A stretch of 64,000 nt of DNA. It comes from Candidatus Omnitrophota bacterium. Lineage in GTDB: Bacteria > Omnitrophota > Gorgyraeia > Zapsychrales > JANLHA01. Shown piece by piece: positions 15,417 to 58,782 of the stretch (the stretch's first letter is position 1; each line of letters starts with the position of its first letter). The DNA lies in the NCBI GenBank assembly GCA_020632555.1, contig JACKFI010000003.1, positions 4,351 through 68,350 on the forward strand. Direction: 5' to 3'. A model generated the notes under the pieces. The model was given only the letters and a program-made list of their open reading frames with translations, did not search any database and was not told the origin of the DNA. The position numbers and the translations under genes are program-made.

Positions 15417-15421
15417 GGTTT

Positions 15422-15503
15422 GGTTTGATCAATGGCATCCTTGGGCTCAATTGTTTTGCGCCTTTATGGCGCGATTCGCCTGCAGGACGCCACTGATCAA
15501 ACC
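15422..15503. repeat. Hairpin element copy A (37-nt conserved core 15444-15480 between complementary arms)
   Basis: Arms ggtttgatcaatggcatcc (15422-15440) and ggacgccactgatcaaacc (15485-15503) are complementary at 17 of 19 positions. The core ggctcaattgttttgcgcctttatggcgcgattcgcc is shared with copies B and C. Confidence 0.8.
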
Positions 15504-15524
15504 AAATGAAATAAAGAGGATAAA

Positions 15525-16317: not shown

Positions 16318-16460
16318 GTCATTGCGAGAAGTCCCCTAGGGACGACGAAGCAATCTTTACGAGATTGTTTTATTTTTAAAAGCAGGTTCGTCGTGACGAG
16401 GGTTATCGATAGTTTAAGATTGCTTCGGTATTTTGAATACTTCAGTGTTGTTGGGATGAC
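16318..16460. repeat. Pair of inverted copies of the GTCAT...CGAAGCAATCTT palindromic repeat family
   Basis: 16318-16358 is gtcattgcgagaagtcccctagggacgacgaagcaatcttt. 16416-16460 is aagattgcttcgg...gggatgac, which as reverse complement starts gtcatccc and ends cgaagcaatctt. Related copies lie at 55124-55157 and 58684-58730. Confidence 0.7.
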
Positions 16461-16501
16461 GTCGTGTCCCGGGTGAGTTTAGGTTAAGCGGTTTTATATT
16501 T

Positions 16502-16587
16502 TTGCTGCTGCTTGGTAACCTCTTAAGGCGAATAGCGCCATAGAGGCGCCAAACAATTGAGCCGTAGAGGTTGCCAAATAGCAGCAA
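16502..16587. repeat. Hairpin element copy B (core 16527-16563, inverted orientation)
   Basis: Arms ttgctgctgcttggtaacctct (16502-16523) and agaggttgccaaatagcagcaa (16566-16587) are complementary. The reverse complement of the core reads ggctcaattgtttggcgcctctatggcgctattcgcc. Confidence 0.8.
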
Positions 16588-16611
16588 GAACAATTTAATG
16601 GAGAATAAAAT

Positions 16612-40356: not shown

Positions 40357-40382
40357 TTCAGTGCAGCAAAGTTAAAAGATGA

Positions 40383-40470
40383 AAAAGGCAAACCACTCGC
40401 AAGGGTGGGACGCAAAGCTAAAGGGTCCCGTCGCCGGAAGGTGAAGTTTGAGGGACAGCCAGTTACCATC
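40383..40470 (+). promoter_or_regulatory. c-di-GMP-I (GEMM-I) riboswitch aptamer
   Basis: 'GGCAAACCACUCGCAAGGGUGGGACGCAAAGCU' aligns almost base for base with the V. cholerae Vc2 aptamer segment 'GGCAAACCAUUCGAAAGAGUGGGACGCAAAGCC' (recalled from the literature). The first hairpin has a GNRA (GCAA) tetraloop. A second hairpin GUCCC...GGGAC carries an internal GGAA loop, and the 3' 'AGUUACC' matches Vc2 'GGUUACC'. Confidence 0.8.
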
Positions 40471-40490
40471 AAAAGGTCAAAAGCTTATGT

Positions 40491-40776: not shown

Positions 40777-41175
40777 ATGAAAATGAAATTAAATCGCAAG
40801 GGGTTCACACTCGTTGAAATTATGATCGTTGTCGCGATCATTGCCCTCTTAGCAGCCATCGCAATTCCGAACTTGTTAAAAGCCAAGATTTCAGCGAACG
40901 ATGCCTTAGCAAAAAGCACGTTGCGTTCGCTCTCAACAGCTTCTGAGACGTTTGCAACGGCTAACACCGGTAACTATCCGACTGATATTACGTCGTTGAC
41001 AGGAGCCACCCCGCCGTACATTCAGGTGCCATATTGTGATCAACAAAACTCTGGTTTCAGCTTTACCTGTACCATGGGAACAGGGTCTTACACGTATGTG
41101 GCCACGCCTGTAACGGTTGGGACTTCAGGGACAACGACATGGACGATTGCTACGGGTGGTGTTTTAACTCCGTAA
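40777..41175 (+). CDS. pilA: Major type IV pilin
   Basis: AGGAGG RBS. Class III signal 'MKMKLNRKG/FTLVEIMIVVAIIALLAAIAIPN' (prepilin cleavage/methylation motif). Small T/G-rich C-terminal domain with one Cys pair. Confidence 0.9.
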   Translation: MKMKLNRKGFTLVEIMIVVAIIALLAAIAIPNLLKAKISANDALAKSTLRSLSTASETFATANTGNYPTDITSLTGATPPYIQVPYCDQQNSGFSFTCTMGTGSYTYVATPVTVGTSGTTTWTIATGGVLTP

Positions 41176-55157: not shown

Positions 55158-55301
55158 GGTTTCGTTATGTATATAAAGGGAAATTGTTTGATCTGGCTGT
55201 GGTTTGTTCTGAGAATGACTTTGGACGCTCGCCAAACTCGCGCAGGACAACAAATCATCCTAGCAAATAAAAATATTAAGTAAGTTAAAGAAGGCAAGAT
55301 A

Positions 55302-55380
55302 CGAAGGTTTGGGTGATTTTACGGCTCAATTGTTTTGCGCGTCTATCGCGCCATTTGCCTTACAATCATCCAAACCTTCG
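55302..55380. repeat. Hairpin element copy C (core 55323-55359)
   Basis: Arms cgaaggtttgggtgatt (55302-55318) and aatcatccaaaccttcg (55364-55380) are complementary with one G.T pair. The core is ggctcaattgttttgcgcgtctatcgcgccatttgcc. Confidence 0.8.
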
Positions 55381-55401
55381 CATCAATTAAAAGAGAACAG
55401 C

Positions 55402-58011: not shown

Positions 58012-58086
58012 ACAATTTGCTTAATGAATCAAAGATTACATGATATAAAAAGGGCAGTCTTTTTAACTAGAGAAAGTGCTTTTTTT

Positions 58087-58782
58087 ATGTTGATCAACAA
58101 ATTTTTCCTACGGCTGTTTTTCTTTCTTTCCTTTCTGAGTGTGTCTTTTTTATTTCTGCCAAATTGTGCCTTGGCCAATAACTTAACAATTAGCAATGTC
58201 ACGCTCGAAGACCGCAATGCGACAGCCAACACGATGGTGGTGCAGTTTGATATCAGCTGGGATCACAGCTGGCGCAAAGACGACGGTCGCCACGACGCGG
58301 CGTGGGTGTTTGTCAAGCTTTACCAAAATTCCACCGCCCCGTGGGTGCACGGCAAACTTTACACCGCAGGAACCAATCCGGTCGGTGGGTCCTCGGGTTC
58401 GAATCCCGACTTGAAGATTGTTGTCCCCTCAGACAAAATCGGCGCGTTTATTTCCCGCACGGCCACTGGCCGTGGCACCTTTTCTTCCAAAAAAGTACGT
58501 TTGGTGGTCGACTACGGCAGCAGCGGCTTGGCCGTACCGCATCGTGGCGAGGCCGAGTCCTTTTCGGCAGAAGTTAGGAAACTTCTGCCAAAGCGTCAAC
58601 CATCAAGGTTGATGCGAGAGTGCAGAAGTCAGGAAACTTCTGCCGAAGCAATCCTTAGAGTATATGATAAAGTGGTTAGTAGTGTCTTTGCGAGGAGACA
58701 TTCAGTTGTTCACGGCGACGTGGCAATCTTGAAGGAACAGGCTTTAGGGGTTAGGTGGTGGACTGTAGATGCTGGACACTGA
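58087..58782 (+). CDS. Hypothetical exported protein; the 3' third probably reads through palindromic repeats
   Basis: The ATG at 58087 gives the signal-like sequence MLINKFFLRLFFFLSFLSVSFLFLPNCALA. 58200-58560 is visibly GC-richer than its neighbours. The last roughly 75 codons overlap hairpin repeats at 58551-58730. Confidence 0.35.
   Translation: MLINKFFLRLFFFLSFLSVSFLFLPNCALANNLTISNVTLEDRNATANTMVVQFDISWDHSWRKDDGRHDAAWVFVKLYQNSTAPWVHGKLYTAGTNPVGGSSGSNPDLKIVVPSDKIGAFISRTATGRGTFSSKKVRLVVDYGSSGLAVPHRGEAESFSAEVRKLLPKRQPSRLMRECRSQETSAEAILRVYDKVVSSVFARRHSVVHGDVAILKEQALGVRWWTVDAGH
58566..58643. repeat. Two near-identical perfect hairpins flanking a third hairpin
   Basis: ggcagaagtt-agg-aaacttctgcc (58566-58589), gtcaacc-atca-aggttgat (58595-58613) and gcagaagtc-agg-aaacttctgc (58622-58643). 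These are followed by cgaagcaatcc and by the 58684-58730 copy of the GTCTTTGCGAG family. Confidence 0.75.

Follow-up and report, generated by a model that had tools for sequence, protein, structure and literature searches.

In the window, i.e., the whole 64-kb stretch of DNA that was analyzed, the open reading frames (ORFs) of at least 110 amino acids that do not overlap longer ones lie almost all on the plus strand and are separated by very short spacers. Spacers of more than 100 nt are rare and mostly taken up by repeats or by a riboswitch. The latter is a c-di-GMP-I-GGC aptamer at 40378-40471 on the plus strand (Rfam RF03167; 61.2 bits, gathering score 59), which resides in a 583-nt spacer upstream of ORF 40777-41175. 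Two direct copies of the 24-nt self-complementary sequence GGCAGAAGTYAGGAAACTTCTGCC, separated by ~35 nt and followed by gaagcaatcc and TCTTTGCGAGGAG, are found at 58563-58647 (and 58685-58697), at or inside the 3' part of ORF 58024-58782; this pair may be another nested repeat.

The hairpin element that is the subject of this study is present in three spacers, each of which is flanked by co-directional genes on the plus strand. Copy A (15417-15509, minus strand) resides in the 108-nt spacer between yggS and proC, copy B (16498-16590, plus strand) in the 301-nt spacer between proC and the gene for a PNP_UDP_1 phosphorylase, and copy C (55296-55387, minus strand) in the spacer of 290 nt that separates nadD from a proA-like aldehyde dehydrogenase gene. 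The covariance-model matches, on these same strands, score 68.3, 81.5 and 76.7 bits, respectively, and the same model with filters off identifies no fourth copy in the 64 kb. Each element is composed of a 37-nt center between complementary arms. The arms are found at 15419-15441 and 15484-15506 in copy A (91% complementary over 23 nt), at 16499-16523 and 16566-16590 in copy B (84% over 25 nt), and at 55298-55325 and 55357-55384 in copy C (86% over 28 nt). For the resulting units of ~93 nt, the z-scores of folding range from -7.5 to -8.9, irrespective of the strand.

The three centers, at 15444-15480, 16527-16563 and 55323-55359, had been recognized in a preliminary description of this DNA, where they were written on the plus, minus and plus strand, respectively; their positions, the complementarity of the arms around each of them, the intergenic setting of all three copies and their mixed orientation all hold. 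Here, the centers are given on the opposite strand (minus in copies A and C, plus in copy B), referred to below as the preserved strand, i.e., the one with the preserved fold. On this strand, the center of copy A reads GGCGAAUCGCGCCAUAAAGGCGCAAAACAAUUGAGCC and that of copy B reads GGCGAAUAGCGCCAUAGAGGCGCCAAACAAUUGAGCC, which is also the family consensus, while copy C harbors a variant GCGCG-AUAGA-CGCGC mini-hairpin together with GGCAAAU. A degenerate version of the 37-mer matches three times in the window and not once in shuffled sequences.

A search with the core among species-representative genomes, using a pattern in which 17 central positions were left free and 20 were fixed, returned 94 stretches, six of which are chance matches in coding sequence. 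True copies number 94 by the exact pattern and ~101 by the covariance model; the search of related genomes that the preliminary description had suggested thus adds ~100 copies, distributed over roughly seven related Omnitrophota genome bins. Many of these copies were found via the core pattern, so that the apparent invariance is inflated at the 20 fixed positions. The host bins are labeled either "uncultured Planctomycetales" or "Candidatus Omnitrophota", and the ProC protein encoded in the window has a counterpart of 100% identity in an NCBI "Candidatus Omnitrophica" bin. Well-covered bins hold ~10-36 copies each, dispersed in intergenic spacers without an ORF. Only four true copies were found in JGI metagenomes and none in viral contigs; the family is narrow, being limited to a small clade of uncultured Omnitrophota. 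Many copies are located within a few bases of contig ends (e.g., at the related loci designated L013, L050, L052, L055, L058, L066 and L067), which indicates that the repeat breaks short-read assemblies and that copy numbers per genome are underestimated.

Neither for the window copies nor for one complete relative was a relevant match to Rfam obtained, whether the gathering threshold or a permissive E-value was applied. Neither the core nor the sequence of a second repeat family introduced below was found in any relevant paper of the literature searched, which also held nothing relevant on repeats in Omnitrophota. The family is previously undescribed but, as outlined in the following, belongs to a known type of element, the miniature inverted-repeat transposable elements (MITEs).

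The palindrome of the best-preserved relatives reaches ~45 nt to each side and ends in ACGC[CG][GA]TGTGCAAGTT. Complete relatives are ~120 bp long (99-126 bp), non-coding and bounded by ~16-nt terminal inverted repeats, ACGCSRTGTGCAAGTT. Repeats of this type, ACGC[CG][GA]TGTGCAAGTT / AACTTGCACA..GCGT, are present in 13 elements at different loci, and in all 13 the 6-mers that flank the termini match each other, in nine cases at 6/6 positions and in four at 5/6, while offset controls yield a null mean of 3.0 and never reach 6. Examples of these duplications are TTAATG, AATTTA, TATTTC, ACTTTA, GATTTA and TTAAAA. From the outside in, a complete element is composed of a 6-bp A/T-rich target-site duplication, a terminal repeat of ~16 nt, an inner arm of ~22 nt and the asymmetric 37-nt center, followed by the mirror image of the inner arm, the terminal repeat and the duplication. 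The elements are short, non-coding and present in many copies, and they have terminal inverted repeats and a target-site duplication; the family thereby displays the features of a MITE. The preliminary description had argued against an ordinary MITE with conserved terminal repeats, a view that is contradicted by these preserved relatives.

The window copies themselves have lost these outer parts. No terminal repeats are detectable in copies A and C, while copy B retains only a remnant of the outer shell, GTTAAGCGG, immediately upstream of the hairpin. When all copies were clustered by their flanks, 51 ortholog groups were obtained, 26 of them with more than one member. In the nine best-preserved groups the putative duplications agree at 5.2 of 6 positions (null, 3.8); in the remaining 41, which include the window copies, the value and its null are both 3.66, i.e., no duplication is detectable. 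The termini decay while the hairpin persists. Judged by the homology of their centers and arms to complete relatives, on which the assignment of the window copies to a MITE family rests, copies A, B and C are relics that lost their termini. We therefore favor, with a probability of roughly 70%, a model where a ~120-bp MITE family that is found in a small clade of uncultured Omnitrophota gave rise to the three loci, which are old copies without termini.

In four of the 13 terminus-bounded elements the inner module is a different hairpin repeat (gtcatcctgagcg..gaaggatc..), which harbors a GC mini-hairpin of its own. The presence of two inner modules between the same termini makes these termini look like the part that is recognized by a shared transposase. 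Such an enzyme, presumably of the DDE type and encoded elsewhere, would recognize the shared termini and move the elements in trans. In the 0.7 Mb of related loci that were fetched, transposase genes are found beside none of the copies, and an autonomous element with these termini is likewise missing; when 700 ORFs from these loci were clustered, the clusters proved to be housekeeping orthologues only, without a recurrent protein family near the elements. The second palindromic family contains gtcattgcgag.. or gtcatcctgagcg.., followed by ..gcgacg/gaaggatc.. and then a GC mini-hairpin, and has no Rfam match; its complete versions have the same termini and 6-bp duplications as the core-bearing MITE. 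A relic of this family is located at 16318-16405 of the window, in the same proC-phosphorylase spacer as copy B, and further sites are found at L118 (3787-3884 and 2868-3000), L117 (3787-3900), L004 (1976-2074), L005 (1045-1158), L022 (4571-4681) and L075 (1232-1342).

Among the closest known systems are bacterial MITEs, in particular the Correia (also named NEMIS) elements of Neisseria, which are non-coding MITEs of ~100-150 bp with terminal inverted repeats and a short target-site duplication. They are found in tens to hundreds of intergenic copies, and the whole element, which harbors a central IHF site, folds into a long hairpin. The Omnitrophota family shares their length, non-coding nature, terminal repeats, duplication, intergenic copy number and long hairpin, and also has a functional-looking center, in which TCAANNNNTTG, on the strand of the preliminary description, resembles an IHF core consensus. 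More specifically, TCAATTGTTTG in the center is similar, at the level of sequence, to the IHF consensus WATCAANNNNTTR. An IHF-like site of this kind could explain a DNA role that is neutral to orientation, but neither the conservation of all 37 center positions, which exceeds the needs of an IHF site, nor the strand-specific wobble bias discussed below, a feature that also sets the family apart from Correia elements. In addition, the duplication is 6 bp in the Omnitrophota family rather than TA, and it is the center, not the termini, that is best conserved and often inverted.

The arms vary greatly between copies, but they vary together, including matched insertions and deletions. They had been described as unrelated and free in sequence; the ~100 relatives reveal instead that they are diverged versions of one consensus, ..GCCGATTTGGGAAGTCCTTTT / AAAAGGACTTCCCAAATCGGC.., which is common to most copies and which the arms of copies B and C still resemble. 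Their inner ends, CCTTTT/AAAAGG, are conserved in ~90% of the copies. In an alignment of 79 copies to the covariance model, 95.6% of the cells pair, compared with 77.6% in shuffles and 31-53% with slid partners; the alignment was fitted to the structure, a bias that the slid-partner controls share. Changes on both sides are seen at all 16 arm pairs, and the earlier claim that pairing is retained through changes on both sides is borne out by the 79 copies.

Because homologues of ProC could be used to locate the addB-like/yggS/proC/phosphorylase/ileS block in five more distant relatives, the two spacers that flank proC can be compared between genomes. At the yggS-proC site the element is present in the window and at L054, L002 and L123, and is absent or decayed at L117 (an unrelated spacer of 54 nt), L120 (a 1-nt spacer) and L122 (a degraded remnant). 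At the proC-phosphorylase site it is present in the window and at L117, L031 and L002, truncated at L120, and absent from L118, L122 (23-nt spacer) and L123 (12-nt spacer). Orthologues of copy A with homologous arms are thus found at L054 and L002, and orthologues of copy B at L117, L031 and L002. The comparison of orthologous spacers, which the preliminary description had proposed, reveals gain and loss of the whole unit, arms included. Where the center is missing from an orthologous site there is no hairpin whatever, and no arms without a core were found in 0.7 Mb of related sequence, which indicates that arms and center come and go together. These observations rule out the suggestion that a tiny element inserts into pre-existing hairpins. 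Half or degraded copies, composed of the 3' half of the center and one arm, of the 5' half only, or of a CCAACAATTGAAC remnant, are located at L028 (5952-6060, minus strand), L120 (3787-3850) and L122 (2930-2990) and show that the elements decay by deletion as well as by substitution.

The center, which is asymmetric and the best-conserved part of the element, has the layout GGC-GAAU-N-[5-bp GC mini-hairpin]-N-AAACAAUUGA-GCC on the preserved strand, i.e., 5'-GGCGAAU N GCGCC AUAGA GGCGC N AAACAAUUGAGCC-3'. The mini-hairpin is GCGCC/GGCGC in almost all copies and GCGCG/CGCGC in copy C of the window and at L123, while at L070 and L092 all of it is replaced by GUCCCU/AGGGAC with the flanking GGCGAAU and AAACAAUUGAGCC kept. 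This replacement with retained pairing is true covariation, and it supports the exchange of C-G for G-C that had been noted in copy C, which is real. The second compensatory change that had been proposed, from U.G to G.U at positions 14 and 30 of the originally written strand, did not survive the comparison, since pairing is possible in only 41 of 98 copies (the combinations are G-T 39, G-A 32, T-C 13, T-T 7 and C-A 4). Because these two positions are mostly unpaired, the conserved mini-hairpin is 5 bp long, not 7 as first described, whereas the claim that its pairing is kept stands.

At the 17 positions that the search pattern left free, the center remains 95.8% identical between orthologues whose flanks have diverged to 53% identity (arms 80%), and 94.5% identical at a flank identity of 77% (arms 84%). 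This uniformity looks like purifying selection, but the exchange of centers between copies cautions against that interpretation. The loci L023 and L092 are orthologous, with collinear flanks that are 86.8% identical over 1039 nt, and L023 harbors the standard mini-hairpin while L092 harbors the GUCCCU variant, which is found also at the non-orthologous L070. This difference shows that a center can be overwritten from another copy. Selection at the locus is thus not required for its conservation, and the uniformity may be due in part to conversion between copies. The near-invariance of the center would then result from purifying selection, from conversion between copies, or from both.

The center also changes its orientation. 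In seven of the 26 ortholog groups with more than one member it is inverted relative to the flanking genes, and, compared with the window, the two copies beside proC at L002 are both in the inverted orientation. Inverted pairs make up 13 of 29 at flank identities below 0.85 and 2 of 16 above, one of them between loci with 97% identical flanks. At L006, the center is in the opposite orientation to that indicated by the asymmetry of the outer arms around it, which places the breakpoints within the inner arms, and across four of the seven inversions the variable positions beside the mini-hairpin are unchanged, as would fit an inversion in place. Because the center inverts, its orientation relative to neighboring genes is essentially random: in 43 tight co-directional spacers the preserved strand is the sense strand in 24 and the antisense strand in 19, which rules out an orientation tied to transcription. 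An orientation tied to replication is likewise ruled out, as the sign of the GC skew splits 25:21. With inverted repeats around a segment that is found both ways in 7 of 26 ortholog groups, the element is similar to an inverton, but no recombinase recurs near the elements and no promoter is found in or near the center. Moreover, a common recombinase site cannot reside in the arms, as these differ from locus to locus.

Matched substitutions, matched indels and frequent inversion of the center can be brought under one account by template switching, which is a published source of compensatory changes and of loop inversions in hairpins (PMC8794818). Multi-base compensatory changes, matched indels and whole-loop inversions could each be accounted for by one event. 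Judging from the patterns in the sequences, template switching within the palindrome at replication (i.e., quasi-palindrome correction) would use one arm as the template for the other, and events of this kind would also invert the center while the arms stay paired. However, this is a mutational process rather than an element, and alone it explains neither the conserved center nor the wobble bias.

This bias is seen in the mismatches of the arms. Transition mismatches, on the strand of the preliminary description, are A.C or C.A in 113 cases and G.T or T.G in 24. An A.C mismatch on that strand corresponds to G.U on its complement, so the asymmetry identifies the complementary strand (GGCGAAU...) as the one on which mismatches are wobble pairs, i.e., the strand with the preserved fold is the complement of the one on which the hairpin had been written. 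Counted by ortholog group, the direction is 41 against 4, and when mismatches with the same local context are counted once, the distinct events number 69 against 18 (p = 3 × 10^-8), which rules out that the bias was inherited from a few master copies. The preserved strand folds on average 2.4 kcal/mol more stably (33 groups against 17, p = 0.0014). The bias is found where the flanking genes are encoded on the preserved strand (sense, 26:4) as well as where they are encoded on the other (antisense, 31:7) and is unrelated to the local GC skew (25:21). Among mismatches shared between orthologues the ratio is 55:6, and among private ones 20:9. At L117, two core substitutions are both C-to-U on the preserved strand and both still pair as G.U. 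The direction of the mismatches is set by the orientation of the center, independently of the direction of transcription and of replication, and the bias requires a process that can tell the strands apart by the center alone. Of the earlier proposal that selection acts on structure, the constraint on a single-stranded fold is upheld by this asymmetry, while the sequence-free arms and the reading as something other than a MITE, with which it had been combined, are not.

What the process is can be stated only tentatively. The bias may reflect a role at the RNA level or, with the same limited plausibility, a strand-biased conversion without any cellular function; a role in single-stranded or cruciform DNA is an only slightly less likely candidate. 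In the model that we favor, a strand-specific constraint together with template switching would maintain the hairpin, and each template switch would erase older mismatches, so that the bias relative to the current orientation of the center would be rebuilt after an inversion. On the preserved strand, as RNA or as single-stranded DNA, the apical internal loop could serve as a recognition module for some factor.

An alternative model is that the element is a structured RNA motif selected by the host in intercistronic spacers, for which the transposon is merely the vehicle. The apical internal loop (GAAU on the 5' side, AAACAAUUGA on the 3' side, and the mini-hairpin) would then be the binding site of a protein or nuclease, which would control how the flanking mRNAs are processed or how stable they are. 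Such a motif would account for the G.U bias on one strand and its greater strength among shared than private mismatches, for the covariation in arms and mini-hairpin, for the conservation of search-free center positions while the flanks diverge, and for the tight placement of elements between a stop codon and the ribosome-binding site that follows. We nevertheless consider it unlikely. The preserved strand is the sense strand of co-directional flanking genes in only 24 of 43 cases, and the bias is equally strong where it is antisense. Neither a promoter nor a U-tract terminator goes with the element, Rfam holds no matching family, copies are readily lost or truncated at orthologous sites, and a center that can be replaced from another copy need not be conserved through selection at its locus. 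Promoter and terminator scans remained at chance level, with the single terminator match, at 55337-55351, being the mini-hairpin inside copy C. An intrinsic terminator is ruled out, as no T-run follows the arms on either strand, and of the k-turn, loop E, hammerhead, hairpin-ribozyme and boxA motifs, compared by eye with consensus sequences, none fits; for the k-turn, no register places the G.A pairs correctly.

A model where only the 37-nt center is mobile or convertible, entering or overwriting the tips of existing hairpins in either orientation, would explain both the inversions and the invariance of the center. The variant mini-hairpin at an orthologous locus that is common to a non-orthologous copy, as well as the frequent inversions, including the one between loci with 97% identical flanks, are consistent with this model, and the conserved inner-arm ends could supply the homology. 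We regard it as improbable, because hairpins with these arms and no center are not found in the 0.7 Mb of related sequence, sites without the center also lack the arms, arms of one consensus travel with the center inside duplication-bounded elements, and the variable positions that are unchanged in four of the seven inversions fit an inversion in place.

The architecture is also the reverse of that of REPINs, where two conserved inverted REPs at the ends enclose a variable, paired spacer, and where compensatory changes in the stem are likewise seen (PMC3116915). The Omnitrophota family resembles them in being composed of intergenic, lineage-specific and vertically persistent hairpin repeats with compensatory stem changes and a proposed single-stranded active form; it differs in its single conserved center with variable arms, in its target-site duplications, which REP elements do not make, and in that no RAYT gene was found near the copies at the loci sampled, and on these grounds it is not regarded as a REPIN. 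Least probable of all is a REPIN- or REP-like element moved as single-stranded DNA by a domesticated HUH enzyme (RAYT or IS200-type) that recognizes the tetranucleotide-plus-mini-hairpin center on one strand: the intrinsic strand bias that is independent of transcription and GC skew, the conserved GAAU directly 5' of a GC-rich mini-hairpin and the intergenic, lineage-specific occurrence at high copy number would fit, but transposition of single strands by HUH enzymes is not known to yield terminal inverted repeats or target-site duplications, both of which the complete copies bear, and the Y1-transposase motif has no match among the 700 ORFs from the loci, for which the genomes were sampled in part. 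Integron attC sites, which have conserved boxes at their outer ends and a variable center and are linked to cassettes and an integrase, share with the Omnitrophota family paired arms that vary between copies, a structure that matters more than sequence and one strand as the active folded form, but no outer boxes, cassettes or integrase were seen in the latter.

A terminus-less relic of a MITE thus agrees best with the data, and for annotation it follows that this repeat family is to be masked and not listed as an RNA gene. The family is unusual for a MITE in three respects, i.e., a center that outlives the termini, the frequent inversion of this center and the strand-specific wobble bias. Search-free center positions that are 95-96% identical while the flanks drop to 53%, and a bias that ignores gene orientation and GC skew, argue against a plain selfish MITE, and the strand bias is the one feature that such an element would not predict. 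It is conceivable, if unlikely, that the center and inner arms are a functional module carried by the transposon, i.e., a strand-specifically recognized hairpin that can be inverted between its own arms and exchanged between copies. In that case, dispersed tiny invertible switches or protein-docking hairpins would be found in Omnitrophota operon spacers, and if the bias reflects recognition of one folded strand, a partner protein would be expected. The ~100 copies, many of them orthologous across species, are a clean natural dataset on the evolution of palindromes, which could be used to measure how much RNA-like covariation is the result of template switching rather than selection.
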